Assembly: GCA_017396965.1 (NCBI GenBank)
Contig: JAFQKL010000314.1
Location: 1 to 41,208, forward strand
Length of the DNA stretch: 41,208 nucleotides
Direction: 5' to 3'
From: Clostridia bacterium
Lineage (GTDB): Bacteria; Bacillota; Clostridia; Oscillospirales; Feifaniaceae
Shown: positions 5,722-29,947 of the stretch, piece after piece
Numbering within the stretch: position 1 is the first letter of the stretch
How the letters are laid out: every line of letters starts with the position of its first letter
Made by a program: the position numbers and the translations under genes
The notes under the pieces: model-generated
The model's database searches: none
Seen by the model: only the letters and a program-made list of their open reading frames with translations
Told to the model about the DNA's origin: nothing

Positions 5722-6210
5722 TCAGAGTGTGACAGCGTATCGCAGCTCCTCCACGCCGACATCGCCAAGGATCTGCGAGCCGCCGTCGTGGGCAAAATGG
5801 TGTGCCTCGTAAAAGCGGCGTGCCGCGAGATTGGGGGCAAGCACCCAGAGAAAAGCGCGAGTGAAGTTCTGTTGCCTGGCCTCTGCCAAAAATGCCTCAA
5901 TCAGCGCGTGACCCACACCGCTCTTCTGGAAAAAGGGGTCGACATAAAGCTCCACCAGCTCCACCGCATCCCCCTGCACCCGCCGACGCAGCATCCCTTT
6001 GACGATGCCGTCATCATAGACCCAAAGCTCCTGCCGGTAAACGGGGTCCTGACGCAGCTCTTCGATCACCGAGAGGACGGTGAGCACCTGGAAGCTGAAA
6101 AAATCATCCTCAAAGATGGGGCGATAGGCGGTGCGCTTGGCGAAGACGAGGATCTCCGCGATGCGGGAGATGTCCTCCGGTTCCGCCGGGCGGATCAGAC
6201 GATCGCTCAT
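5722..6210 (-). CDS. GNAT family N-acetyltransferase
   Basis: 162-aa ORF. It has an acetyl-CoA binding-type segment LYVDPFFQKSGVGHALIEAF and a C-terminal RRFYEAHHF. It overlaps the RidA gene by 4 nt. Confidence 0.85.
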   Translation of the reverse strand: MSDRLIRPAEPEDISRIAEILVFAKRTAYRPIFEDDFFSFQVLTVLSVIEELRQDPVYRQELWVYDDGIVKGMLRRRVQGDAVELVELYVDPFFQKSGVGHALIEAFLAEARQQNFTRAFLWVLAPNLAARRFYEAHHFAHDGGSQILGDVGVEELRYAVTL

Positions 6211-14374: not shown

Positions 14375-15091
14375 TTGCCCAAGCAAACGCAGTCTGTCGC
14401 CATTGACCGCAGCCGCATCCCGGCTCATATCGCCATCATTATGGACGGAAACGGCCGCTGGGCCACCTCCCGTCTGCTGCCGCGCAGCATGGGGCACCGG
14501 GAGGGCGCCAAAAAATTTCGCGAGATCGCCTCCTACTGTCAGGAGATCGGTGTCAAGCACCTGACGGTCTATGCCTTCTCAACCGAAAACTGGAAACGCC
14601 CCAAAGAGGAAGTGGACACCATCCTCTCCCTCTTTCGCGACTATTTGATCGAGGCCAAAGAGGAGCTGGGCCAGCGCAACATCCGCATCCGCATCCTCGG
14701 CGACCTCGCCCCCTTTGAAGGGGAGCTGCGCGACCTCATCGAGGAAGTGCAGACCATCAACTGCCGCGAGGATGCGCTGATTGCCAACATCGCCGTCAAC
14801 TACGGCGGCAGGGCGGAGCTTGTGACCGCCGCCAACGCCGCCTTTGCCAAAAAGGGCGGCCCCATCACCGAGGAGGAGCTGGCCGCCTGTCTCTACACCG
14901 CCGGCCAGCCCGATCCCGACCTCATCATCCGCACCTCCGGCGAGTACCGCATCTCCGGCTTTCTGCTGTGGCAGTGCTCGTACAGCGAGTTCTTCTTCTC
15001 CGACCTGCTCTGGCCCGACTTTACGACCGAAGAACTGGACCGCGCCATTTTCTCCTTCCAGAACAGAAAGCGACGCTACGGCGGGGTCTGA
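14375..15091 (+). CDS. uppS: Isoprenyl transferase (undecaprenyl diphosphate synthase)
   Basis: TTG start 7-8 nt after GGAGGGGG. HIAIIMDGNGRWA, TVYAFSTENWKRP and RTSGEYRISGFLLWQ are present. Confidence 0.9.
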   Translation: MPKQTQSVAIDRSRIPAHIAIIMDGNGRWATSRLLPRSMGHREGAKKFREIASYCQEIGVKHLTVYAFSTENWKRPKEEVDTILSLFRDYLIEAKEELGQRNIRIRILGDLAPFEGELRDLIEEVQTINCREDALIANIAVNYGGRAELVTAANAAFAKKGGPITEEELAACLYTAGQPDPDLIIRTSGEYRISGFLLWQCSYSEFFFSDLLWPDFTTEELDRAIFSFQNRKRRYGGV

Positions 15092-15177
15092 ACCGAAGAC
15101 GCCCGGTGTAAACTAACATAGGAAAAGGCGCGGGCCGAAGCGTTCCCGCTCTTTTCAGGATATAAGAGGAGTACAAT

Positions 15178-15792
15178 ATGCAGGATCATACGCAGGAAAA
15201 GGGAAGGGGACTGGCGTTCGCCGTGCTGTGGATCATGGCCGTGCAGCTCCTGGATCTGCTGCTGGCGATGGCCGTCTGGTCGGCGGTGGCGGAGAGCTAT
15301 CGAATGGAGTGGCTGGGCTATCTGTTCGGCCTGCTCAACCTCCCGCTCTACTGGCTGGGAGGCTATCTCATGCCGAAGGCTTTCCACCCCGAAAAGGGCC
15401 GGCGTACCACGACACTGCTGCTGATCTTTATCACCGTCAATCTGCTGCTCAGCCTCCTTCTGCCCGGATTCTTCCCGAAACTCGGCCGGGTGTGGACGCT
15501 GCCGCAGCAGTTCACCGCCATCGCCTGCTTCTTCTTTCTCTACTGGACCGGCTTCAGCCACAGCGTTTTCTTCTTTGACGTGGTGGAGCCGATTCTGGGT
15601 CTTGTGGCGCTGGCGCTGATGTTCTTCTTCCTCGGCATCGGCCTCTCCGGTGCGCGCAAACGCGAGGGCAAGGAGACAAATTATGTCGATGTGACACCTG
15701 CGGTCGATGAGGCCGGCGAGGGGGCGGCGGAAGACGCGGAGGCGGAAGCCCCCGCCGAATCGGAGGAGCCGGCCCCCGCCCCCACCACCTGA
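15178..15792 (+). CDS. Hypothetical polytopic membrane protein with acidic Ala/Glu/Pro-rich C-terminal tail
   Basis: AAGAGGAGTACAAT precedes the ATG. It has about 5 hydrophobic helices and the tail DEAGEGAAEDAEAEAPAESEEPAPAPTT. I recognise no family motif. Confidence 0.6.
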   Translation: MQDHTQEKGRGLAFAVLWIMAVQLLDLLLAMAVWSAVAESYRMEWLGYLFGLLNLPLYWLGGYLMPKAFHPEKGRRTTTLLLIFITVNLLLSLLLPGFFPKLGRVWTLPQQFTAIACFFFLYWTGFSHSVFFFDVVEPILGLVALALMFFFLGIGLSGARKREGKETNYVDVTPAVDEAGEGAAEDAEAEAPAESEEPAPAPTT

Positions 15793-15811
15793 ATCAACGG
15801 GAGGACCTGGT

Positions 15812-16621
15812 ATGTTCACCGCGAAATTCTGGGCCGGCGCCGCGTATTTTCTTCTGGCGCTGCCGCTCTTTTACTATTCCCACACCGTTGCCCTGCCGCT
15901 GGTCATGACGGGGATCGCCATGCGCTGCGTCTACGAAGCCTTTCACATCAGCGGCTTTTACGAGTCGAAGCTGCTGATGGTGCCGGCGCTCTGCCTGCCG
16001 CCGCTGCTCTGCTTCGCCCCTTATTTCGGCCACGGACTGTGGGCGCTGTTCTGCTACGCCTGGCTGCTGTTGGCGCTGCTGCTCTATCTGCTGCACTATG
16101 ACAACAGCACCCTGCTGCAGTTCGTCTACTGCGCCTTTTTCACCCTGCTGCTCTCGGCCGGCATCAGCATCCCCGTGCAGACCCGGCAGCTCGAGGGCGG
16201 GCAGTGGCTGATCATCTTCACCTTCGCCGGCTGCTGGGCGGCGGACACCTGCGCGCAGATGTGCGGCAGGATGTTCGGCAAGCACAAGCTGGGCATCGGC
16301 GTCTCGCCCAACAAGACCATCGAAGGCTGCGTCGGCTCGCTGATCTGTACGGCGGCGGTCTACGGTCTGCTGGGCTTTGCCATCAACCGCCTGGCGGGAA
16401 CCACCTTCCGCATCCCGCTGCTCGTCCTCTCCGGGTTTGCCGTCTCGCTGGCGGCGCAGGTGGGCGACCTGCTGGCCTCCGCCGTCAAGAGATGCTTCGG
16501 CGTCAAGGACTTCAGCCGCCTCATTCCCGGACACGGCGGGATGTACGACCGCTTTGACTCCTTCGCGCTGGTGGCCCCCATGGTCTACCTGATGGCCGAT
16601 CTGCTGCCGCTGTTTGCGTGA
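15812..16621 (+). CDS. cdsA: Phosphatidate cytidylyltransferase
   Basis: ATG 15812 follows GGGAGGA. SPNKTIEG and GDLLASAVKRCFGVKDFSRLIPGHGGMYDRFDS form the CTP-transferase signature. Confidence 0.9.
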   Translation: MFTAKFWAGAAYFLLALPLFYYSHTVALPLVMTGIAMRCVYEAFHISGFYESKLLMVPALCLPPLLCFAPYFGHGLWALFCYAWLLLALLLYLLHYDNSTLLQFVYCAFFTLLLSAGISIPVQTRQLEGGQWLIIFTFAGCWAADTCAQMCGRMFGKHKLGIGVSPNKTIEGCVGSLICTAAVYGLLGFAINRLAGTTFRIPLLVLSGFAVSLAAQVGDLLASAVKRCFGVKDFSRLIPGHGGMYDRFDSFALVAPMVYLMADLLPLFA

Positions 16622-16687
16622 GAGAAGTTTGAACCGAACGGTTTTCATCTGAATTCCAACGGAGATTCTGATAGAAGGAGACTTTGA

Positions 16688-17845
16688 TTGAAACGAGATC
16701 TGACCATCCTCGGCTCCACCGGCTCCATCGGTCGTCAGACGGTGGAGGTGGCGCTGGAGCAGGGGATTTCCGTCCGGGCTTTAACCGGCGGGAAGAATAT
16801 TGACTTGATGGAGCAGCAGGTTCGCCTGCTGCGTCCTTCGTTGGTGGCCATGGCCGACCCCGAAGCAGCGGCTGAACTGGCGCAGCGCCTGTTTGGCAGC
16901 GGGGTTCCTGTGCTGTCCGGGGAAGAGGGTATCTGTAAAGCTGCGGAGCTTGACACGGAAACCGTACTCAGTGCCATCGTCGGCGCAGCCGGCATCCGCC
17001 CCACCGTCACCGCCATCGCCCGCGGCGCCCGCATCGGCCTTGCCAACAAGGAAGTGCTGGTGGCGGCGGGCAGTGTTGTCCTGCCGATGGTGGAGCAGTA
17101 CGGTGCCGAGCTGCTGCCGGTGGACAGTGAACATTCTGCCATCTTCCAGTGCCTCATGGCCAAGGGCGGTGGCGGCGCGCCCCGCCGTATCCTGCTCACC
17201 GCCTCCGGCGGCCCCTTTTTCGGGAAGACGCGGGAGCAGCTCGCCGCCGTCACGGTGGAACAGGCACTGAAGCACCCCTCCTGGCGCATGGGTGCCAAGA
17301 TCACGGTGGACAGCGCCACTTTGATGAACAAGGGCTATGAAGTCATCGAAGCCGCCTGGCTCTTCGGCCTGCCGATCGACAGGATCGAGGTGCTGATCCA
17401 CCGGCAGAGCATTGTCCACAGCATGGTGGAATTTGAGGACGGCTCGGTGATGGCCCAGCTCGGCCGCACCGACATGAAGATCCCCATCCAGCTGGCCCTC
17501 ACCTATCCCCAGCGCGCGTCGCTGCCCCTTTCCCCGCTCGACTTCACCCAGCAGCCCCCCCACACCGTCGCCGCCCCCGACCGGGAAACCTTTGGCTGCC
17601 TCGCCCTCTGCGAGCAGGCGTTTGCCGTCGGAGGCACTGCCCCCGCCGCCCTCAACGCCGCGGGGGAGACGGCGGTGTACGCCTTCCTGTCCGGCCGCCT
17701 GCCCTTCCTCGCCATTGAGCAGCTCTGCCGCGAGGTCCTCGCTGCCCATGCGCCGATCCCGTCGCCGTCCCTGGAGCAGATCCTCGCTGTGGACGCAGCG
17801 GTCAGGGCAGAAGCGGAGGAACGGCTGAGCGCCTTCTCTTTTTGA
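16688..17845 (+). CDS. dxr: 1-deoxy-D-xylulose 5-phosphate reductoisomerase
   Basis: TTG start after AAGGAG. ILGSTGSIGRQT, LANKE, VDSEHSA and NKGYEVIEA are present. Confidence 0.95.
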   Translation: MKRDLTILGSTGSIGRQTVEVALEQGISVRALTGGKNIDLMEQQVRLLRPSLVAMADPEAAAELAQRLFGSGVPVLSGEEGICKAAELDTETVLSAIVGAAGIRPTVTAIARGARIGLANKEVLVAAGSVVLPMVEQYGAELLPVDSEHSAIFQCLMAKGGGGAPRRILLTASGGPFFGKTREQLAAVTVEQALKHPSWRMGAKITVDSATLMNKGYEVIEAAWLFGLPIDRIEVLIHRQSIVHSMVEFEDGSVMAQLGRTDMKIPIQLALTYPQRASLPLSPLDFTQQPPHTVAAPDRETFGCLALCEQAFAVGGTAPAALNAAGETAVYAFLSGRLPFLAIEQLCREVLAAHAPIPSPSLEQILAVDAAVRAEAEERLSAFSF

Positions 17846-17896
17846 GCGAAGAAACAGGGTTCGCCGTACATATTCTGGGAATCGGAGGGATGCTTT

Positions 17897-18946
17897 TTGA
17901 TTCAGGCCATTGTCATATTCGGGTTTCTCATCCTCACGCACGAGCTGGGGCATTTCATCGCCGCCAAATGGGCGCGGATCACTGTGCTGGAGTTCTCCAT
18001 CGGCATGGGCCCGGTGCTTTACCAGTGGACCTCAGGAGAGACGGACTACTCCCTGCGCCTGCTGCCCATCGGCGGCTTTGTGCGGATGCAGGGGGAGGAC
18101 AATTTCGACGAGGACGAGGAGGCCCTGCCTCTCCCGCCGCCGGAGCCTGAGGGGGAGAAGAAGACCTTCGCCTTCCCTGAAGTGCCGCTCTGGAAGCGTT
18201 TTATCGTCATCTCAGCGGGTGCCATGATGAATTTCATCACAGCGCTGCTGGTGATGCTGATGCTGGTCGGCGCCCAGGGTGTGGTCGGCACCACCGAGGT
18301 GGCGAAGTTCGATGAGGACAGCCTCTCGTCCCGGTCCGGCCTGATGGTGGGGGATGTGATCACCGCCGTCAACGGCCGTTCGGTTCACATCACCACCGAC
18401 GTCATCTACGCCCTGCTGCACGCGGGGGACGACCCCTGTACCATCGAGGTGGAGCGGGACGGTCAGAAGCTGACGCTGTCAAACGTCGCTTTCCCTGTGG
18501 GCAGCGGCGGCTATTATGAGCTTGATTTTCTCTTCCGCCGCGGCAGTTTTCACCCGCTGTCCATCCTGCATGAGGGCTTTTTCCGATGCCTGACCATCAT
18601 GCGGGAGGTCTACTGGTCGCTGGGCGGAATGTTCACCGGGGAGGTGTCGGTCAACGATCTCTCCGGACCGGTCGGGACCACGCAGGCCATCAGCCAGGTG
18701 TCACAGCAGGGCTTTGGTGCGCTGGTCTATTTTGCCGTCTTCATCAGCATCAATCTCGGCATCGTCAACCTGCTGCCCTTCCCGGCACTGGATGGAGGGC
18801 GGCTGGCGCTGCTGCTGCTGGAAAAGCTGCGCGGAAAGCCGCTGTCTCCCGCTGTGGAGGGTTCAATCAACATGATCGGAATGTTGATCCTCATGGCTCT
18901 GGTGGTGCTGGTGACCTTCAAGGATGTGCGGATGCTGGTCGGATAA
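17897..18946 (+). CDS. rseP: RIP metalloprotease RseP/RasP (site-2 protease, M50 with PDZ)
   Basis: TTG start 7 nt after GGAGGG. HELGHF is near the N-terminus, there is a central PDZ-like segment, and NLLPFPALDGG is near the C-terminus. Confidence 0.9.
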   Translation: MIQAIVIFGFLILTHELGHFIAAKWARITVLEFSIGMGPVLYQWTSGETDYSLRLLPIGGFVRMQGEDNFDEDEEALPLPPPEPEGEKKTFAFPEVPLWKRFIVISAGAMMNFITALLVMLMLVGAQGVVGTTEVAKFDEDSLSSRSGLMVGDVITAVNGRSVHITTDVIYALLHAGDDPCTIEVERDGQKLTLSNVAFPVGSGGYYELDFLFRRGSFHPLSILHEGFFRCLTIMREVYWSLGGMFTGEVSVNDLSGPVGTTQAISQVSQQGFGALVYFAVFISINLGIVNLLPFPALDGGRLALLLLEKLRGKPLSPAVEGSINMIGMLILMALVVLVTFKDVRMLVG

Positions 18947-18974
18947 CGCGACGGGCAGGAAAGGAGTGGAGAAG

Positions 18975-20057
18975 ATGAAGATGGAGCGAAGAAACAGTCG
19001 AAGGGTAACGGCGGGCGGCTTGGCCATTGGCGGCAACGCCCCTGTCTCGGTGCAGTCGATGACCAACACGGCGACGGCCGATGTGACCGCCACCGTCGAA
19101 CAGATTCGCCGCCTGCAGGAGGCCGGCTGTCAGCTGGTGCGGCTGGCGGTGCCGGATCAGGAGGCGGCAGAGGCGTTGCCCCGGATCCGCGCCGCCGTTT
19201 CGCTGCCGCTGGTGGCCGATATTCACTTTGACCACCGCCTTGCCCTCGCCGCCGTGCGGGCCGGGATCGACAAGGTGCGCATCAACCCCGGCAACATCGG
19301 CGGTGAGGCCCGGGTGGCAGAGGTGGCCGCCGCCTGCGTTGCGGCCGCCGTGCCGATCCGCATCGGTGTCAACAGCGGCTCGGTGGAAAAGGAGCTGCTG
19401 GCGAAATACGGCGGCCCCACCCCTGAGGCGCTGGTGGAGAGCGCCCTCGGCCACGCGCTGCTGCTGGAGCGATGCTCTTTTTATGATATCGTCATCTCGA
19501 TCAAGGCCTCCACCGTGGCGGACATGGTGAAGGCCAACCGCCTGCTGGCGGAACGCTGTGACTATCCGCTGCACCTCGGTGTCACCGAAGCCGGAACACC
19601 GGGAGCGGGCATCGTCAAATCAGCCGCAGGCATCGGCGCCCTGCTGCTCGACGGCATTGGGGACACCGTCCGCGTCTCGCTGACCGCCGACCCGGTGGAG
19701 GAAGTCCTCCCGGCGCTGCGCATCCTCGCCGCCTGCGGTCTGCGCCCCGAGGCGCCGGAGCTGGTCTCCTGCCCCACCTGCGGGCGGACGGGAATCGACC
19801 TCATCCCCCTCGCCGAACGAGTGGAACGGGCGCTGTCCGCCAAAAAGCTGCCCATCAAGGTGGCGGTGATGGGCTGCATCGTCAACGGCCCCGGTGAGGC
19901 CCGCGAGGCGGATCTCGGCATCGCCGGGGGCAGGGGAGAGGGCGTGCTGTTTTCCAAGGGCAAGGTGCTGTACCGTGTCCCGGAAGAAAAGCTGTTTGAC
20001 TGCCTGATGGAAGAAATCGACAGATGGGCCGCTGCACGAGAGGAGGCAAGGGAATGA
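18975..20057 (+). CDS. ispG: 4-hydroxy-3-methylbut-2-enyl diphosphate synthase (flavodoxin)
   Basis: ATG 18975 follows GGAAAGGAG. VSVQSMTNT, RINPGNIG and the Fe-S ligands SCPTCGRT...MGCIVNGPGE are present. Confidence 0.95.
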   Translation: MKMERRNSRRVTAGGLAIGGNAPVSVQSMTNTATADVTATVEQIRRLQEAGCQLVRLAVPDQEAAEALPRIRAAVSLPLVADIHFDHRLALAAVRAGIDKVRINPGNIGGEARVAEVAAACVAAAVPIRIGVNSGSVEKELLAKYGGPTPEALVESALGHALLLERCSFYDIVISIKASTVADMVKANRLLAERCDYPLHLGVTEAGTPGAGIVKSAAGIGALLLDGIGDTVRVSLTADPVEEVLPALRILAACGLRPEAPELVSCPTCGRTGIDLIPLAERVERALSAKKLPIKVAVMGCIVNGPGEAREADLGIAGGRGEGVLFSKGKVLYRVPEEKLFDCLMEEIDRWAAAREEARE

Positions 20058-23000
20058 ACACCGCTTTGGGCGAGCTGTTTTCCGACCACGAAACCCTTCG
20101 CGACGAACACCGCGAGGCCAGGGTCAACCGCATCAATTTCGACCGCGACCGCCGCAGCATCGAGGTGTGGATGTTCAGCGACGTACTGCTGGACAAGGAC
20201 CACCTGCGCCGCCTCAGCGACGAGCTGAAAAGCCTCTACAGCTTAAACGACCTCACCATCCACTGCCGCTACAACAATCTCCCCCTCACCCCTGATTACG
20301 CCCCCATGCTGGCGCAGCACATCGCCCAGGTCTGCCCCGCCTGCCGCGGCTTTCTCGAAGACGCCGAGATGGTGGTGGAGGATAACAAGGTGCGCTTTCT
20401 GCTGCAGCACGGCGGCGGCGAATCTCTGGCGCGCAGCAACGCCTCGCGTCTGCTCTCCCAGCTGATTGAGGAGGAGTTCGGCACCCGCTACGAGGTCTGC
20501 TTTGAAGGTGAGCTGGAGCTGAGGGACTTTTCGCAGGATCTGCAGACCGTGCGCACCGCCATCGCGGAGGAGGCGCGCAAGGCCGCCCCGACCCCTGAGG
20601 TCAGGAAGCAGCAGGTGAGCGACCAGCTCTACGGACGCCGCTTCGACCTGCCCACCACCCCCATGCGGGAGGTGGATCTCGACAGCGGCACCGTCGCCGT
20701 CAGCGGCGAGGTGTTCGGACTGGAGACCAGAATCTCCAAGAACAAGCAGACGGTCATCGTCTCCTTCAATCTCACCGACCTCACCTCCTCCCTGCCGGTC
20801 AAACTGTTCCCCAAGGCCGATCAGTCGCGGGATCTGCTGGCGGCGCTGAAGGACGGGATGTACATCAAGGTCCGCGGCGATATGCAGATGGACCGCTACA
20901 CCAATGAGCTGAGCCTCATGGCCCGCGACATTGTCAAAGCCGACCGCCCTGTCCGCCTGGACAAGGCCCCGAAAAAACGGGTGGAGCTGCACCTGCACAC
21001 CACCATGAGTCAGATGGACGCCGTCACCCCGGTGCAGGACTACTTAAAGCGGGCCGCCCAATGGGAGCATCCCGCCATCGCCATCACCGACCACGGCGTC
21101 CTCCAGGCATATCCCGACGCCTGCAACGGTGCCAAAAAAGCCGGCTTCACCGGCAAGATCCTCTACGGCATCGAGTCCTATTTCATCAACGACGGAGACG
21201 CCTCCGCCGAGACCCCGCTGCTCGACGAGGAGATGGTCATCTTTGACGTCGAAACCACCGGCCTCTCCGCCCGCAACGACCGCCTGACCGAGATCGGCGC
21301 CGTGCTGATCAAGGACGGTGCCATCCTCGACCGCTTTCAGACCTTTGTCAATCCCGGGATGCCCATCCCCGGTGAGATTGTCAAGCTCACCGGCATCACC
21401 GATGAGATGGTGGCAGACGCCCCTTCCGAAGCCGAGGCGGTGGCCGCCTTCCTCCGTTTTGCCCAAAACCGCACCCTCATCGCCCACAACGCCAAGTTCG
21501 ACATCTCCTTCATCGGTGCCGCCGCCGTGCGCGCCGGCCTGCCTTTTTTGAATCCCCATGCCGACAGTCTGGCCATCGCCCGCTGTGCCCTGCCGCAGCT
21601 GAAAAACCACAAGCTGGACACGCTGGCCAGCCACTTCCAGGTCTCCTTCCGCCACCACCGTGCCGATGATGACTCCGAGGCCCTGGCCAAGATCTTCTTC
21701 GGTCTGGTGGCGCTGGGCAAGGAGCAGGGGGCGCAGCGTCTGGCCGATCTGCAGACCGTTTTCGGCAGCAGAGCCGATCTGCGCCTGGAGAAGACCTTCC
21801 ATCAGATCATCCTCGTCAAGAATCAGACAGGTCTTAAAAATCTCTTCAAGCTGGTCAGCAAATCGAACCTCCTCTACTTCGGCAACAAGCGCCCCAAGAT
21901 CCCGAAGAGTGAGCTGGTGCGGCTGCGCGAAGGTCTGATCCTCGGTTCCGCCTGCGAGGCAGGGGAGCTGTTCACCGCCATTGTCGAGGGTCAGCCCCGC
22001 GAGAAGCTACTGGAGATTGCCAAGTTTTATGACTACCTTGAGATCCAGCCCATCGCCAACAACCGCTTCCTCATCGCCAAGGGCCTCGCCCGCGATGAGG
22101 AGCAGCTGCGGGACTACAACCGCACCGTCGTCTCCCTGGGTGAAGAGCTGGGCCTGCCGGTTGCCGCCACCTGTGATGCGCATTTCCTCGACCCCGAGGA
22201 GGAGATCTTCCGCAGCATCCTGTTGGCCTCCCAGGGCTTCGACGATGCCGACCGCGAGCTGCCGCTCTACTACCGCACCACAGAGGAGATGCTCGAGGAG
22301 TTCGCCTATCTCGGTGAAGAGAAGGCCTATGAGGTGGTGGTCACCAACACCAATCTCATCGCCGACTGGTGCGAGACCGTGGTGCCGCTGAAAAAAGGGA
22401 TGTTCCCCCCGGAGATCCCCGGCGCCGATCAGGAGCTGCGCGACATCACCTACAGCCGCGCCCGCGAGCTGTACGGCGAAGAGCTGCCCGAGATCGTCAC
22501 CGCCCGCCTCGAGCGGGAGCTCAACCCCATCATCGAAAACGGCTATGCCGTCATGTACATCATCGCCCGCCGGCTGGTGCAGGAGTCGATGCAAAACGGC
22601 TATCTGGTCGGCTCCCGCGGTTCGGTCGGCTCCTCGCTGGCGGCTCATTTCGCCGGCATCACCGAGGTCAACGCCCTGCCGCCCCACTACGTCTGCCCGA
22701 GCTGCCATTTCAGCCGCTTTGACGAAACCGGCACCTACGAGGCCGGCTGCGATATGCCGGATCTCGACTGCCCCGTCTGCGGCACCCGCTGCCGCAAGGA
22801 CGGCTTTGACATCCCCTTTGAAACCTTCCTCGGCTTCTCCGGCAACAAGGTCCCCGATATCGACCTCAACTTCTCCGGAGAGTACCAGACCCAGGCCCAC
22901 AAATACGCGGAATCGCTGTTTGAGAAGGGCCATGTCTTCCGTGCCGGCACCATCGCCACCGTGGCGCAGAAGACGGCGTTCGGCTATGTGAGAAAGTACC

Positions 23001-24271
23001 TGGAGGAGCGGGGGAGAGTGGTCTCCCGCGCCGAGGAGGAGCGGCTGATCAAGGGCTGCACCGGCATCAAGCGCACGACCGGGCAGCACCCGGGCGGTAT
23101 CATGGTGGTGCCGGCGGCGCTGGACATTGAAGACTTCACCCCCGTCCAGCATCCGGCGGACGACGCCTCCAAGGATGTCATCACCACCCACTTCGATTAC
23201 CACGCCATCCACGACAATATCTTAAAGCTCGATATGCTCGGCCATGATGATCCGACCGCCCTGAAGATGCTCGGGGACTTGAGCGGCCTCGATGTCACCA
23301 AGCTGCCGCTGGACGATCCTGAGGTGCTGGAGCTGTTCCGCAGCGTCGACAGTCTCAAGCTTCTGCCGGGGGAGGACGTCGGCAAGACCGGCTCCATCGC
23401 CATCCCCGAGTTTGGCACCGGCTTTGTGCGCGGGATGCTTGAGCAGACCCGCCCCACCACCGTTGCCGAACTGGTGCGCATCTCCGGCCTCTCCCACGGC
23501 ACCGACGTGTGGCTGGGCAACGCAGAAACCCTCATCCGCGAGGGTACCTGCAACCTGCGTCAGGCCATCTGCTGCCGTGATGACATCATGCTCTACCTCA
23601 TCCAGAAGGGGATGCCCAAGCTCGACAGCTTCAACATCATGGAGCAGGTGCGAAAGGGCAAGGGCCTCTCAGACGAGCAGGCGGAGCAGATGCGCCAGCA
23701 CGATGTTCCCGAGTGGTACATCGGTTCCTGCCGCGCCATCAAGTATATGTTCCCCAAGGCCCATGCCGTGGCCTATGTCACCATGGCGCTGCGCATCGCC
23801 TGGTTCAAGGTGCATATGCCGCTGGCATTTTACGCAACCTATTTTTCGGTGCGTGCCGACGCCTTTGACGCCAGTGTCATGGCCCGCGGCAAGCAGCGGC
23901 TCAAGGAGCTGGTGGCGGAGATCGCCGCGATGGAGAGCCGCACCGCCAAGGATGAAGACCGCGCCACTGTGGCCGAGGTGTGCCTTGAAATGCTGGCCAG
24001 AGGGTTTCGTTTTCTCCCGGTGGACCTCTACAAGTCCGATGCCCTCAAATTCACAATTGAAGGCGATTCCCTGAGACCTCCTTTAAATTCTCTCCCCGGT
24101 GTTGGCGACGCGGCCGCGGCCGCCATTGTGGAGGCGCGGGAGAACAACAGCTTCACATCTCAGGAAGAGCTAGCCGCAAGCGCCCGCGTCTCTAAGGCTG
24201 TCATTGAAACCCTGGCAGAAAATGGGGCGCTTGGCGATATGCCGGCCAGCGCACAGCTCAGCTTGTTCTAA
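20054..24271 (+). CDS. polC: DNA polymerase III PolC-type (alpha subunit with 3'-5' exonuclease)
   Basis: ATG 20054 (GGAGGCAAGGGA upstream) overlaps the ispG stop as ATGA. PHP motif ELHLHT, exonuclease motif VIFDVETTGLS, Zn-finger CPSC...CPVCG, and polymerase core PDIDLNFSGE. Confidence 0.97.
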   Translation: MNTALGELFSDHETLRDEHREARVNRINFDRDRRSIEVWMFSDVLLDKDHLRRLSDELKSLYSLNDLTIHCRYNNLPLTPDYAPMLAQHIAQVCPACRGFLEDAEMVVEDNKVRFLLQHGGGESLARSNASRLLSQLIEEEFGTRYEVCFEGELELRDFSQDLQTVRTAIAEEARKAAPTPEVRKQQVSDQLYGRRFDLPTTPMREVDLDSGTVAVSGEVFGLETRISKNKQTVIVSFNLTDLTSSLPVKLFPKADQSRDLLAALKDGMYIKVRGDMQMDRYTNELSLMARDIVKADRPVRLDKAPKKRVELHLHTTMSQMDAVTPVQDYLKRAAQWEHPAIAITDHGVLQAYPDACNGAKKAGFTGKILYGIESYFINDGDASAETPLLDEEMVIFDVETTGLSARNDRLTEIGAVLIKDGAILDRFQTFVNPGMPIPGEIVKLTGITDEMVADAPSEAEAVAAFLRFAQNRTLIAHNAKFDISFIGAAAVRAGLPFLNPHADSLAIARCALPQLKNHKLDTLASHFQVSFRHHRADDDSEALAKIFFGLVALGKEQGAQRLADLQTVFGSRADLRLEKTFHQIILVKNQTGLKNLFKLVSKSNLLYFGNKRPKIPKSELVRLREGLILGSACEAGELFTAIVEGQPREKLLEIAKFYDYLEIQPIANNRFLIAKGLARDEEQLRDYNRTVVSLGEELGLPVAATCDAHFLDPEEEIFRSILLASQGFDDADRELPLYYRTTEEMLEEFAYLGEEKAYEVVVTNTNLIADWCETVVPLKKGMFPPEIPGADQELRDITYSRARELYGEELPEIVTARLERELNPIIENGYAVMYIIARRLVQESMQNGYLVGSRGSVGSSLAAHFAGITEVNALPPHYVCPSCHFSRFDETGTYEAGCDMPDLDCPVCGTRCRKDGFDIPFETFLGFSGNKVPDIDLNFSGEYQTQAHKYAESLFEKGHVFRAGTIATVAQKTAFGYVRKYLEERGRVVSRAEEERLIKGCTGIKRTTGQHPGGIMVVPAALDIEDFTPVQHPADDASKDVITTHFDYHAIHDNILKLDMLGHDDPTALKMLGDLSGLDVTKLPLDDPEVLELFRSVDSLKLLPGEDVGKTGSIAIPEFGTGFVRGMLEQTRPTTVAELVRISGLSHGTDVWLGNAETLIREGTCNLRQAICCRDDIMLYLIQKGMPKLDSFNIMEQVRKGKGLSDEQAEQMRQHDVPEWYIGSCRAIKYMFPKAHAVAYVTMALRIAWFKVHMPLAFYATYFSVRADAFDASVMARGKQRLKELVAEIAAMESRTAKDEDRATVAEVCLEMLARGFRFLPVDLYKSDALKFTIEGDSLRPPLNSLPGVGDAAAAAIVEARENNSFTSQEELAASARVSKAVIETLAENGALGDMPASAQLSLF

Positions 24272-24318
24272 ACTTTTAAGAATTCAAATGTTCTCATCTT
24301 CCAGTTGCAAAAAAATCG

Positions 24319-24347
24319 TTGACAAAAGAACAGATCCCTAGTATACT
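24319..24347 (+). promoter_or_regulatory. Near-consensus sigmaA promoter (TTGACA-N17-TATACT)
   Basis: TTGACA at 24319-24324 and TATACT at 24342-24347 with an exact 17-nt spacer. It is preceded by an AT-rich UP-like stretch (24272-24318). Confidence 0.7.
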
Positions 24348-24353
24348 ATATCA

Positions 24354-24559
24354 TGAGCAGGAGAAACAGGCCAGAGTTGCCTCGGTTTCCTGCCCGCTTG
24401 AGTCCGTTCAAGCGGCCCAGCGCACGCCCCCCGAGAAAGAACGGGGCTCCTTTTGCCACACCCCAGGGCGGGAACGGCAGGGAGGCCCGCAAGCCAAGAC
24501 CTCACCCCTCAATTTGGTTGTTTCTCATTTTGCACCCGTCCTGCTGCGGCAGAGCGGGT
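24354..24559 (+). ncRNA. Candidate structured RNA domain 1 (unclassified) at the 5' end of the promoter-driven transcript
   Basis: Closing helix 24361-24368/24519-24526 (8 bp), extended by 24370-24373/24515-24518 and 24375-24379/24510-24514. Inner helix 24380-83 plus 24389-94 pairs with 24476-85. Hairpins at 24395-24414 and 24429-24446, plus a downstream hairpin at 24534-24559. The family is unknown. Confidence 0.35.
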
Positions 24560-24600
24560 CAGAGCGTACAAAACAGATGAACTTGTATGGAGAAGCTTTC

Positions 24601-24698
24601 GCCGTTTGAGCAAACAGGTTAGCAGCAGGGATTTTGACGGGTGCTCATTTCTTAACCGCACCGCCGATCTCTCGCCCTTTGGAGAGGGCAGAAACGGT
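24601..24698 (+). promoter_or_regulatory. Candidate structured RNA domain 2 (three-way-junction-like leader element)
   Basis: 7-bp closing helix 24601-24607/24692-24698 enclosing hairpins GGTGC(24640-44)/GCACC(24658-62) and CTCTC(24669-73)/GAGAG(24682-86). There is no U-tract terminator before the CDS. Confidence 0.25.
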
Positions 24699-24789
24699 TT
24701 TGCGTAATCCATTGTTCATCACTGCCGGAGTGCAGTATGAAAATAAGCCCCCAAAGCGGGGCAAAACTAACCAAAGCGAGGGAAAAAGA

Positions 24790-25077
24790 ATGTACGAAGA
24801 CAAGACCTTGGTGTGTAAAGAGTGTGGCGCGGAGTTCGTGTTCACCGCCGGCGAGCAGGAGTTCTATGCTGAGAGAGGCTTCCAGAACGAGCCCCAGAGA
24901 TGCAAGCCCTGCCGTGACGCCAGAAAGAACGCTGCCAAGCAGCAGAGAGAGATGTTCACCGCCACCTGCGCTTCCTGCGGCGGCGAGGCGAAGGTTCCCT
25001 TCCAGCCCAGAAACGACAGACCTGTCTACTGCAGCGAGTGCTTTGCCAAGATGAAGGAGGAGCAGCCCAGCTACTAA
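24790..25077 (+). CDS. Zinc-ribbon protein (CxxC-x17-CxxC type, two Cys4 modules)
   Basis: 95 aa from ATG 24790 (GAGGGA upstream). First module CKECG...CKPC, second module CASCGGEAKVPFQPRNDRPVYCSEC. Confidence 0.8.
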   Translation: MYEDKTLVCKECGAEFVFTAGEQEFYAERGFQNEPQRCKPCRDARKNAAKQQREMFTATCASCGGEAKVPFQPRNDRPVYCSECFAKMKEEQPSY

Positions 25078-25118
25078 GCCGGAGCCTGCGTCCGCTCATT
25101 TTGAGAAGGACAAGAAAA

Positions 25119-25156
25119 GACCCGTCCGACCTGAAAATCGGACGGGTCTTTTTTTC
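25119..25156 (+). terminator. Rho-independent terminator of the zinc-ribbon gene
   Basis: 11-bp stem GACCCGTCCGA (25119-25129) / TCGGACGGGTC (25138-25148) followed by TTTTTTT. Confidence 0.85.
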
Positions 25157-25180
25157 CGCTTTTTTCTCCTGTATGATCCA

Positions 25181-25214
25181 AAATCCTCCCCCGGCCGGCG
25201 GCGGGGGAGGATTT
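25181..25214 (-). terminator. Probable terminator of the pyridoxal kinase gene
   Basis: Stem AAATCCTCCCCCG (25181-25193) / CGGGGGAGGATTT (25202-25214). On the minus strand a short U-run (UUUUGG) follows. Confidence 0.5.
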
Positions 25215-25229
25215 CGGAACAGTCTGCGC

Positions 25230-26081
25230 TTAAGTATTGTATTTCATCAGCAGCGGCAAAGTCCGCTCCAGCGGAACGCCCTCCCGCGGCGGCGCGCCGA
25301 CGGCGATGGCCACGCGGATGGTCTCTGAGAGATAGTCGGTGGCGATCTCCAGCGCCTTTTGCATCGGGAAACCGCGCACCAGCAGGCCGGTCAGCACCGA
25401 GGTGAACAGGTCGCCGGTGCCGGGGTACTTGCCGGACAGACGACGGGCGCGAACCTCGTAAAAATTGCCGCTCTCCCGCTCGTAGGCGCAGTTGATGAGC
25501 GTCTCCTCGTCGATGGAAACGCCGGTCAGCACCGCCGTTTTACAGCCAAGACCGCACAGCTCCTTGAGGCAGCTCTTCAGCTCCTCCATGGCAGAGACTC
25601 CTTCACTGTATGGACGGTCGATCAGGTAGACGCACTCGGTCAGGTTGGGGGTAATGACATCCGCCTTGCCGCACAGCTCGCGCATCCGGTAGCCCATCTC
25701 GGAGGTGACGGTGGGGTAGAGCGCACCGTTGTCACCCATCACGGGGTCGGCGACGCAAAGCGCCCCTTCGCTGTGAGAAAAGATATGCTCAATCAGGGCC
25801 ACCTGCTCCAGGGAGCCGAGAAAGCCGGAGAAGATGCCGTCGAAGTTGAGATTTTCCTTTTGCCAATGAGAGAACACCGGCAACACTTCTTCGGTGAGAT
25901 CGCAGAAGGTGAAGTTTTCAAATCCGTCAGTCTGCGTGGAGAGACAGGCGGTGGGGAGGGGGCAGACCTGTACGCCCAGTGCCGACATGGCGGGAATGAC
26001 GGCGGTCAGCGCACACCGGCCGACGCCGGAGAGATCATGGATGGCGGCGACGCGAGGGACGGGACGGTGGGAAAATTCCAC
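25230..26081 (-). CDS. pdxK: Pyridoxal/pyridoxamine kinase (PfkB-like ribokinase superfamily)
   Basis: GTG start 9 nt after AAGGAGG. The N-terminus VAAIHDLSGVGRCALT and the C-terminal GTGDLFTSVL are typical of the PdxK/PdxY family. Confidence 0.8.
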   Translation of the reverse strand: MEFSHRPVPRVAAIHDLSGVGRCALTAVIPAMSALGVQVCPLPTACLSTQTDGFENFTFCDLTEEVLPVFSHWQKENLNFDGIFSGFLGSLEQVALIEHIFSHSEGALCVADPVMGDNGALYPTVTSEMGYRMRELCGKADVITPNLTECVYLIDRPYSEGVSAMEELKSCLKELCGLGCKTAVLTGVSIDEETLINCAYERESGNFYEVRARRLSGKYPGTGDLFTSVLTGLLVRGFPMQKALEIATDYLSETIRVAIAVGAPPREGVPLERTLPLLMKYNT

Positions 26082-28413: not shown

Positions 28414-29892
28414 TCACAGGATGATGCAGATCAGCCCGCCGCTGCCCTCGTTGATGATGCGCTGAAGCGTCTCCTGCAGCTTCTGCCGCGCCTCCTCCGG
28501 CGTGCGGTTGAGCTTGGCGACCAGACCTTCGTTGACCAGCTCGTGCAGCGATTTGCCGAAGATGTTGGACTCCCAGATCTTCTGGGGGTTCTCCTCAAAG
28601 TCGTCGAGCAGATATTTCACCAGCTCCTCTGACTGCTTCTCGCTGCCGACGATGGGGGAGACCTCGGTCTCGATGTCGGCGCGGATCATATGGATGGAGG
28701 GCGCAGATGCCTTGAGCCGCACTCCGTAGCGGCTGCCCTGCTTGACGATCTCCGGCTCCTCCAGATGCAGCTCCTCAATGCCGGGGGTGACAATGCCGTA
28801 ACCCTTGGCCGTCACCTCTTCCAGGGCCGTCGCCACCTTGTCGTAGCGCTTCTTGATCACCGAGAGGTCGCGCAGCAACGAGACCATCTGCTCCTCGCCC
28901 TCAATCTCAAAGCCGGTCTCCTCGCCCAGGACGCGGTAGAACAGCCCCTCCTCCACCAGTGCGTCGACACTGGCCGTCCCTTCGCCGAGACTCATCTCCA
29001 GCAGCGTTGCCCGCTTGAGGTTGGGGTTTTGGGCGATGCGCTCCACGGCGCCCGATACGTCGCGGATGCGCTCCACCCCGCCGAGGCTTTCGGTCATGCT
29101 CTCGTAAAGGGAGGTCTTGAGCCAATGCTCCGGCGGCAGGGTGAAGATCCAGCCCGGCAGCATGACGTTGACCTCCTTGATAGGGAATTCAAACAGCACC
29201 TTCTCCATAATGCCCTTGATATCCCCCTCGGTCAGCTCCATGCAGTTGACCGGCACCACCGGCACCTCATACCTGGCCGAAAGCTCCTCCGCCAGCGCCA
29301 GCACATGGGGGCTCTCCGGCGCACGGGAATTGAGCACCAGCACAAACGGCTTGCCCAGCTCCCGCAGCTCGCTGACCACCCGCAGCTCCCCCGGCTCGTA
29401 GGCCGAGCGGGGCAGCTCGCCGATGCTGCCGTCGGTGGTGATCACAAGACCAATGGTGGAGTGGTCGCGGATCACCTTGCGGGTGCCGATTTCGGCGGCC
29501 TGATCGAAGGGGATTTCCGCGTCGCTCCAGGGTGTGCGCACCATGCGGGGATGGTCGTTCTCGGTGCTGCCGAGCGCACCCTCCACCAGATAGCCGACAC
29601 AGTCGATGAGGCGGACGTTGAGCCGCGAATTCTCCGACAGCGAGATCTCCACCGCCTCGTTGGGCACGAATTTCGGCTCGGTGGTCATGATGGTGCGCCC
29701 GCCCGCGCTCTGCGGCAGCTCATCCACCGCCCGCTCCCGCTTGTTTTCGTTGACGATGTTGGGCAGCACCAGCGTCTCCATGAATTTTTTGATAAAGGTG
29801 GACTTCCCGGTGCGCACCGGGCCGACGACGCCGATGTAGATATCCCCGTCGGTCCGGCGGGCGATATCGTGATAGATAGAAAATTTGTCCAT
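28414..29892 (-). CDS. spoIVA: Stage IV sporulation protein A (coat morphogenetic ATPase)
   Basis: 492 aa from ATG 29892 (GGGGGTG RBS). Walker A GVVGPVRTGKSTFIKKFM, with full-length resemblance to SpoIVA. The track start at 29919 has no RBS. Confidence 0.95.
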   Translation of the reverse strand: MDKFSIYHDIARRTDGDIYIGVVGPVRTGKSTFIKKFMETLVLPNIVNENKRERAVDELPQSAGGRTIMTTEPKFVPNEAVEISLSENSRLNVRLIDCVGYLVEGALGSTENDHPRMVRTPWSDAEIPFDQAAEIGTRKVIRDHSTIGLVITTDGSIGELPRSAYEPGELRVVSELRELGKPFVLVLNSRAPESPHVLALAEELSARYEVPVVPVNCMELTEGDIKGIMEKVLFEFPIKEVNVMLPGWIFTLPPEHWLKTSLYESMTESLGGVERIRDVSGAVERIAQNPNLKRATLLEMSLGEGTASVDALVEEGLFYRVLGEETGFEIEGEEQMVSLLRDLSVIKKRYDKVATALEEVTAKGYGIVTPGIEELHLEEPEIVKQGSRYGVRLKASAPSIHMIRADIETEVSPIVGSEKQSEELVKYLLDDFEENPQKIWESNIFGKSLHELVNEGLVAKLNRTPEEARQKLQETLQRIINEGSGGLICIIL

Positions 29893-29917
29893 TGCGGCAC
29901 CCCCGTGAGTTTTGTTC

Positions 29918-29947
29918 ATGCTTATGTGGGGGTGGGAAGGATTATGA
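29918..29947 (-). promoter_or_regulatory. Possible sigmaE-type promoter for spoIVA
   Basis: On the minus strand, TCATAAT-N14-CATAAGCAT compared with the consensus TCATATT-N14-CATACAnT. The -10 match is only partial. Confidence 0.3.

Follow-up and report, generated by a model that had tools for sequence, protein, structure and literature searches.

The SigH (Spo0H)-type sigma factors of Bacillota (NCBIfam TIGR02859 and NF006145 to NF006148) are classically encoded in the gene order sigH-rpmG-secE-nusG. Here, we describe a 518-nucleotide (nt) gap between polC and a zinc-ribbon gene in a Clostridia bacterium of the family Feifaniaceae (GenBank assembly GCA_017396965.1, contig JAFQKL010000314.1, positions 1 to 41,208; this 41,208-nt stretch is referred to below as the window). 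Comparison with related genomes indicates that the gap is almost certainly occupied by the pseudogene remnant of a SigH-like sigma gene, and we consider it quite likely overall that this dead gene now serves as a long 5' leader containing a helix that would control translation of the zinc-ribbon gene. Intact counterparts in two related loci (L001 and L005) match the SigH models best and contain sigma-70 regions 2 and 4. They differ from SigH in that the intact relatives fall below every equivalog cutoff, so that orthology to the sporulation SigH is not established, and in their position between polC and the zinc-ribbon gene instead of in the classical context. The window copy differs further in that it appears nonfunctional, with an intact spoIVA gene 3.3 kb downstream of it (28414-29919, minus strand). 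The intact spoIVA suggests that sporulation could do without the lost sigma, which may have been a dispensable SigH-like paralogue in an organism that would still form spores.

Translational coupling through long-range sequestration of a ribosome-binding site (RBS) is known from rpmI-rplT and from the coat-replicase pair of phage MS2. Sequence within an open reading frame (ORF) that lies upstream likewise sequesters the RBS in Bacillus subtilis sigmaA/sigmaB mRNA isoforms, where a shorter transcript bypasses the block (McCormick et al. 2021, PMC8208050). The locus studied here resembles these systems in that a segment a few hundred nucleotides upstream, in the preceding ORF, complements the Shine-Dalgarno region and is predicted to pair with it. 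It differs in that the upstream ORF of the window is apparently dead, which means that ribosome-driven opening could not operate, in that the pairing register varies between clades, and in that the pairing here is a prediction.

The locus also resembles pseudogenes that are mistaken for noncoding RNA (ncRNA), with a long gap behind a good promoter, residual similarity to a gene, stop codons, and frameshifts, but it differs from them in that the promoter, a 23-nt segment, and the leader appear to be still under selection, with a downstream gene depending on them. With the large RNAs of Rfam (raiA, OLE, GOLLD, ROOL, 6S, and riboswitches) it shares length, G+C-rich hairpins, and a 5' leader position, but the window has no covariance-model match to them even at E <= 10, and the two RNA domains that an earlier, sequence-only reading proposed for the gap are not conserved. 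The finding is for the most part an ordinary one, a decaying gene, and is of modest interest; its by-product is a conserved long-range anti-RBS element.

The polC-zinc-ribbon interval and its counterparts in related genomes

Relatives were sampled as loci encoding homologues of the polC C terminus, with one genome per species, and are given here by locus number. In the five closest loci that reach far enough (L001, L002, L003, L005, and L006), a long gap separates polC from the same zinc-ribbon gene. At the amino acid (aa) level, the polC C terminus is 84% identical to that of the window in L001 and L002 (Candidatus Galloscillospira and kin, Oscillospiraceae), 80% in L003, and 68% in L005 and L006. 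The interval of L001, L002, and L005 holds an uninterrupted ORF of 206 to 209 aa with the Pfam domains Sigma70_r2 and Sigma70_r4_2. SigH equivalog models are the best NCBIfam matches of these ORFs (E of 1e-41 to 1e-49, over the full length for L001 and L005), with the intact relatives scoring 141 to 167 bits against equivalog cutoffs of 208 to 414 bits and passing only the sigma-70 superfamily model TIGR02937. As a rule, the zinc-ribbon gene is immediately preceded by a sigma gene of this type: tblastn matched the sigma in 66 loci, 59 of which have an uninterrupted ORF of 184 to 237 aa there.

The corresponding features of the window are as follows.

24319-24347, plus strand: sigmaA-type promoter TTGACA-N17-TATACT, from a consensus scan; formerly the sigma gene's own promoter
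24348-24740, plus strand: putative remnant of a SigH-like sigma-70 gene, from the former 5' untranslated region (UTR) to the former stop codon TGA 24738-24740 (nhmmer)
24492-24527: peptide remnant SQDLTPQFGCFS (tblastn)
24575-24628, plus strand: putative remnant of sigma region 4.1, reading R-stop-TCMEKLSPFEQTG-stop-QQ (tblastn), in a different frame from the remnant that contains the 23-nt segment
24790-25077, plus strand: intact 95-aa zinc-ribbon (treble-clef) gene (Pfam zf_Tbcl and zf_Tbcl_2; NCBIfam CxxC-x17-CxxC)
25112-25155, plus strand: intrinsic terminator ending the transcription unit (terminator scan; 18-bp stem, then a T-run)

When searched with nhmmer, the gap matched L001 (E = 3.2e-22), L002 (E = 2.3e-20), and L003 (E = 1.9e-17), and in the DNA alignment positions 24485 to 24788 are collinear with approximately codons 115 to 206 of L001 plus its leader. 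Positions 24310 to 24423 weakly match the promoter and start region of L001 (E = 9e-4 in a two-sequence search), and the order of promoter, remnant, and zinc-ribbon gene is the same in L001, L002, L003, L005, and L006. With the sigma proteins of L001 and L002, tblastn recovered peptide remnants in two frames, the region 4.1 remnant being interrupted by the in-frame stops TGA 24578-24580 and TAG 24620-24622. Compared to L001, the remnant lacks about 240 nt, including all of sigma region 2, and the start codon is gone. A six-frame hmmsearch of the window with a profile from 59 relatives gave no trace of Sigma-70 region 2, and the gap has no continuous sigma ORF of ~200 aa that begins with a start codon. 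By these sequence features, the window copy appears to be a remnant and not a functional member of the family.

L082 and L083, independent metagenome contigs of this species, carry the same decayed sequence, so the decay is not an assembly error. The L003 copy is also decayed, although less so, with remnants still readable at E = 1e-13 and with one stop codon and one frameshift. Identity over polC is 84% between the window and L001, 80% between the window and L003, and 83% between L001 and L003; the window and L003 are not sisters, and their two decays are therefore probably independent. Elsewhere, L113 (940-1122) retains only the last 47 sigma codons, behind a transporter gene, L146 (440-743) retains a frameshifted C-terminal half, and L006 (5290-5973) has a C-terminal frameshift, each with an intact zinc-ribbon gene. 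Further truncated or frameshifted sigma copies stand beside an intact zinc-ribbon gene in L126, L085, and L122. These cases indicate that sigma loss is recurrent, and some of the frameshifts may be low-coverage assembly errors. One sigma class appears to have been lost repeatedly with its downstream partner kept, in the window, L003, L113, and possibly L006 and L146.

The 518 nt that the sequence-only reading had measured between polC and the zinc-ribbon gene agree with the ORF boundaries, with polC at 20024-24271 and the zinc-ribbon start at 24790. Its promoter call was likewise sound: the site at 24319-24347 matches 11 of 12 consensus positions, is the sole promoter-like site in the 1.7 kb from 23800 to 25500 (shuffled sequences had a mean of 0.4), and its -35 and -10 elements are kept in the window and in all five syntenic relatives (L001, L002, L003, L005, and L006). 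Transcription from it would start at about 24353 to 24355. Across the family, a promoter of the form TTGAC[AT]-N16-18-TA[TC]A[ACT]T lies just upstream of 43 of 53 distinct intact sigma genes. In many of them (L148, L133, L106, L121, L152, L140, and others), the -10 hexamer ends 5 nt before the first in-frame start codon, a spacing that suggests leaderless sigma mRNAs in many relatives. An ATG at 24353 in the window has the same 5-nt spacing as in those relatives, but its frame differs from those of the remnants.

As the sequence-only reading had stated, no strong terminator precedes the end of the zinc-ribbon gene; the first is that at 25112-25155, and a weak 5-bp terminator-like hairpin at 24429-24446 is the only such signal ahead of it. 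The zinc-ribbon gene has the Shine-Dalgarno sequence GAGGG directly ahead of its start at 24790, and its protein is 85 to 93% identical to those of the syntenic genes of L001 to L006. The start codon and Shine-Dalgarno sequence are kept in all relatives, but the sequence upstream of them is not.

A conserved 23-nt segment and its predicted pairing with the zinc-ribbon RBS

Neutral sequence should be near saturation between these lineages, because third-codon positions of polC are only 46 to 53% identical. Identity of the window to L001 and L003 was as follows along the interval.

24505-24527: 23/23 to L001, 23/23 to L003
24528-24588: 39% to L001, 36% to L003
24589-24627: 75% to L001, 78% to L003
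24628-24712: 39% to L001, 36% to L003
24713-24746: 79% to L001, 74% to L003
24760-24792: 33/33 to L001, 32/33 to L003

The first of these islands, the 23-mer, is identical at 23/23 positions in the window, L001, L002, and L003, beside flanks that are 36 to 39% identical, and it sits in the otherwise variable sigma2-sigma4 linker. Such perfect conservation in two decayed lineages suggests that the segment may still be selected. The elements with which it is considered here are the following.

24505-24527, plus strand: putative anti-RBS 23-mer CCCCTCAATTTGGTTGTTTCTCA, in the former sigma2-sigma4 linker (L001 codons T-P-Q-F-G-C-F-S)
24715-24741, plus strand: hairpin TTCAT-c-ACTGC ... GCAGT-ATGAA containing the former sigma stop codon (RNAalifold columns 241-252/256-267, 4/4 sequences)
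24747-24762, plus strand: G+C hairpin GCCCC-caaagc-GGGGC between the former sigma stop codon and the RBS, with no U-tract after it
24764-24782, plus strand: RBS strand AAA-ct-AACCAAA-gc-GAGGG, with the Shine-Dalgarno sequence GAGGG at 24778-24782

Positions 24506-24523 are predicted to form 16 base pairs (bp) with 24764-24782 at -21.7 kcal/mol in the window, pairing CCCUC with GAGGG, UUUGGUU with AACCAAA, and GUUU with AAAC. The zinc-ribbon RBS is the best downstream partner of the 23-mer in the window, L001, L002, and L003 alike (-21.7 to -22.1 kcal/mol). This long-range helix is present both in the minimum free energy (MFE) structure of the window and in the four-sequence RNAalifold consensus, with pair probabilities of 0.85 to 0.94 in the window transcript and 0.84 to 1.0 across the four transcripts, in which the Shine-Dalgarno sequence is almost never unpaired. 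The long-range helix is probably a real, selected element; as to whether it still functions in the window, we would put the chances as evenly balanced.

The two short hairpins between the former sigma coding sequence and the RBS have their own counterparts in relatives. An analogous stop-codon hairpin, CAGC-nnnn-GCTGA, was seen by eye in distant clades. The hairpin at 24747-24762 carries a compensatory change to GCCGG/CCGGC in L003, and a covarying hairpin ending in GGGCAA or GGCAA stands at the same place in most related leaders. The block at 24589-24627, corresponding to sigma region 4.1, is still 75 to 78% identical though out of frame and interrupted by stops, and no function was found for it.

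We propose that the interval derives from an ancestral two-gene unit between polC and the end of the zinc-ribbon gene, in which a sigmaA promoter would have stood before a SigH-like sigma gene and, after it, the zinc-ribbon gene. In the window lineage, the sigma ORF would have been destroyed through loss of about 240 nt including region 2, loss of the start codon, a frameshift, and in-frame stops. What the zinc-ribbon gene still needs would have been kept: the promoter, 23 nt from the former ORF, and a structured leader that includes the Shine-Dalgarno sequence. The promoter at 24319-24347 would now yield an untranslated zinc-ribbon leader of approximately 436 nt, on a transcript ending at 25112-25155, and within it the predicted helix, supported by the relatives, would bury the Shine-Dalgarno sequence at 24778-24782. 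Where the operon is intact, ribosomes moving along the sigma ORF could open the helix and so couple translation of the two genes; alternatively, a shorter transcript without the upstream strand could bypass it. In the window, the helix would most likely be a standing damper on zinc-ribbon translation, because no ORF is translated through the 23-mer. A single-nucleotide polymorphism (SNP) at 24454 within the species removes the sole start codon of the frame crossing the 23-mer. In the stretch from the 23-mer to the zinc-ribbon gene, a consensus scan found no internal promoter, and weak -10-like strings seen by eye near the old sigma stop codon decide nothing.

RBS complementarity across the sigma-zinc-ribbon family

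In other members of the family, the segment was located by protein homology, at a fixed offset after the motif K-H-x-P-L-N. Of 44 distinct short-spacer loci, 33 have no better partner for the cognate RBS anywhere in the sigma ORF than this homologous segment. Energy-based comparisons of cognate with noncognate pairs and of slid offsets were used because no common register was found. With one representative each of 12 sigma clades (<60% aa identity), cognate segment-RBS pairs average -16.3 to -17.2 kcal/mol and noncognate pairs approximately -12.6 kcal/mol (permutation p <= 1e-4). At 17 other ORF offsets, the same test gave about -6.5 to -9.4 kcal/mol, and cognate pairs were no better than noncognate ones. 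Coevolution of the two strands is possible: by energy, cognate pairs are better by ~4 kcal/mol, at the homologous site only, whereas column by column there is no common register and no RNAalifold consensus. When full-length transcripts were folded, pairing of the Shine-Dalgarno sequence with the segment reached a probability of at least 0.6 in 12 of 17. The two strands differ in matching ways in the following sigma segments and RBS partners.

Window clade: sigma segment TTTGGTT, RBS partner AACCAAA
L005: sigma segment CCTCGCT, RBS partner AGCGAGG
L094 and L099: sigma segment TTTGAC, RBS partner GTCAAA
L154: sigma segment ATCCTCTC, RBS partner GAGAGGAT

We put forward only tentatively, and at somewhat less than even chances, the combined claim that the dead sigma gene has been co-opted, with its promoter and 23-nt piece selected as the zinc-ribbon leader, and that the SigH-like sigma linkers of many Oscillospiraceae-type Clostridia carry an anti-Shine-Dalgarno sequence that coevolves with the RBS. 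If this is true, synthesis of the zinc-ribbon protein would be tied to a sigma factor, and this uncharacterized protein would be the functional partner of the sigma, for example an anti-sigma or a cofactor. If the helix is real, it would offer a testable handle on the function of the widespread zf_Tbcl zinc-ribbon protein and would be a case of a pseudogene fragment retained as cis-regulatory RNA.

Competing explanations for the interval

Several observations weigh against reading the interval as a dead sigma gene with a translational-control helix. The window remnant lies below protein-profile detection (six-frame hmmsearch, E of about 1), so that homology is argued from synteny and from DNA similarity with three close lineages. 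The helix is invariant within the window clade and thus shows no covariation there, its register differs between clades, and neither fixed-column alignment nor RNAalifold on mini-constructs across clades gives a consensus structure. Cognate pairing at about -16 kcal/mol is only slightly better than that of the best site in a 600-nt control (mean, -14.8 kcal/mol). The segment also encodes a semiconserved peptide motif, S-L-D-x-P-x-F-D, which could partly account for its conservation in intact genes. Finally, L113 keeps its zinc-ribbon gene after losing the segment altogether, and the helix is therefore not indispensable.

The alternative that survives best is a plain pseudogene with no residual RNA function, in which nothing but the promoter and the local RBS would matter and the 23-mer has been kept by chance or through recent decay. 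The loss of the segment in L113 and the lack of column-wise covariation fit this view, the 23-mer is found in only three independent lineages, and the 75% conservation of the block at 24589-24627, which has no assigned function, points to uneven or recent decay. The view is strained by the 23/23 identity in both decayed lineages beside flanks of 36 to 39%; at the 25% divergence of the block at 24589-24627, zero changes in 23 nt would have a probability of ~0.001. Throughout the family, moreover, the homologous site complements the RBS in a cognate-specific way, and the 17 control offsets do not. On balance, we hold a plain pseudogene to be unlikely.

The sequence-only reading had instead proposed a functional, structured RNA in its own right, an ncRNA or riboswitch-like leader of two domains, either 6S-like, raiA-like, or undescribed. 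The strong promoter and several perfect G+C hairpins favor it, and the MFE of the leader (-163 kcal/mol) is below those of all 100 shuffles. A base-by-base check found all of the hand-traced helices in the sequence: the closing helix (24361-68/24519-26, 24370-73/24515-18, and 24375-79/24510-14), the hairpins at 24395-24414, 24429-24446, and 24534-24559, and the helix 24601-07/24692-98. However, L001, L002, and L005 have an intact protein-coding gene to which the region is homologous, and neither the nested helices of Domain 1 nor the three-way junction of Domain 2 has comparative support. Domain 2 falls inside the decayed coding sequence of sigma region 4. Domain 1 lies in the following stretch.

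24353-24504, plus strand: fast-evolving 5' half of the interval; BLAST and nhmmer match only the same-species contig L082

Domain 1 occupies the place of approximately 370 nt of 5' UTR and sigma region 2 in L001 and is no longer alignable with it; BLAST and nhmmer found no alignable counterpart outside its own species. A repeat or mobile-element origin was rejected, as there is no second copy in the window or in the 163 loci. The closing helix is absent from the MFE structure, and forcing it (24361-79 with 24510-26) costs 10.6 kcal/mol (-152.6 against -163.2 kcal/mol). Its 3' strand is the 23-mer, which has a better and conserved partner in the downstream RBS.

Variation within the species is also against a conserved fold. 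Between the window and L082, 9 of 10 SNPs fall within about 170 nt (24382-24535), compared to 1 in the next 586 nt (24536-25121); the background SNP rate in L081 is 7 per 1,910 nt. Two of the 10 proposed inner-helix pairs are lost through the substitutions at 24382-84 and 24478, and a third is weakened, with no compensation for any of them. The hotspot at 24382-24535 could reflect neutral decay or a recombination tract. Nor is the stability of the fold exceptional. The z-score of 24353-24789 was -2.55, and -2.09 in a rerun, among 19 control windows of 437 nt from the same, mostly coding sequence with a mean z-score of -1.05 (standard deviation, 1.0). The stability is ordinary for this DNA, because 3 of the 19 controls were at -2.09 or lower and the region of the intact sigma gene in L001 has a comparable z-score of -2.24.

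Searches against Rfam gave no family for the region. There were no matches at gathering scores in the whole window, and at E <= 10 positions 24200-24900 gave only two chance snoRNA matches, with nothing credible and no covariance-model match to riboswitches, 6S, raiA, OLE, T-box, tmRNA, RNase P, or SRP RNA. In 18 related loci, Rfam returned only true tRNAs, an L10 leader, a 5S fragment, and two weak tRNA-like matches. An ARAGORN call of an 87-nt tRNA-Glu(ctc) on the minus strand at 24387-24473 was rejected, having no Rfam tRNA match at E <= 10 and a fold z-score of -0.25; it is likely a false positive that could mislead automatic annotation. Of the original proposal, cotranscription with the zinc-ribbon gene is retained, most likely as a long structured leader reading into that gene, and the orphan ncRNA or riboswitch is not. 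We regard an independent ncRNA as very unlikely; a false candidate is thereby removed, in which a promoter followed by G+C-rich DNA that can be folded by hand is a decaying gene.

Least credible of all, to the point of being negligible, is a small protein, either a leaderless 75-aa ORF (24353-24580) or a zinc-ribbon protein extended N-terminally from TTG 24634: these ORFs exist mechanically, and ATG 24353 lies 5 nt after the -10 element in a leaderless geometry that the sigma ORFs of several relatives may share, but the 75-aa ORF, which the sequence-only reading had itself doubted, has no Pfam match and no homologue outside the species, its codons are altered by the SNPs at 24382-84, and what is kept in all relatives is ATG 24790 with its Shine-Dalgarno sequence, not the sequence upstream of them.

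Neighboring genes and other leader types

Upstream of the gap, positions 14375-24271 hold the usual uppS-cdsA-dxr-rseP-ispG-polC block, in which the mechanical ORF start of polC overlaps ispG by 34 nt. Third-codon positions of the zinc-ribbon gene (24790-25077) are 70 to 75% identical to those of L001, L002, L003, and L006 and 60% identical to those of L005. Its synonymous sites are unusually constrained, compared to 46 to 53% for the third positions of polC in the same genomes. A PDB sequence search with the zinc-ribbon protein was uninformative, and in the searchable literature we found nothing relevant on the sigma/zinc-ribbon pair, the zinc-ribbon family, or SigH pseudogenes in Oscillospiraceae.

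Where the spacer between the sigma and zinc-ribbon genes is long (107 to 133 nt), a tRNA-like element stands directly before the zinc-ribbon RBS (L100, 891-957; L110, 76-140; L006, ~5905-5972; and L097, L161, L141, L089, and L156). It has a D-arm-like UAGCUyAA..AGAGC and the T-arm GGUUCAAAUCC, scores 37 to 40 bits with the Rfam tRNA model, and is not called by ARAGORN. Most of these loci have only a weak RBS complement in the sigma linker, or none. The element may be an RNase P/Z processing signal.

A third type of leader precedes zinc-ribbon genes that have no upstream sigma gene and consists of AACC(G)ACCCTG, then approximately 40 to 45 nt, and then CAGGGCAA. It occurs in L096 (~2423-2476) and also in L093, L098, L102, L103, L127, L136, and L163. 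It has no Rfam match, and RNAalifold supports only its CCCTG/CAGGG closing stem. The three leader types and the window hairpin at 24747-24762 all end in GGGCAA.

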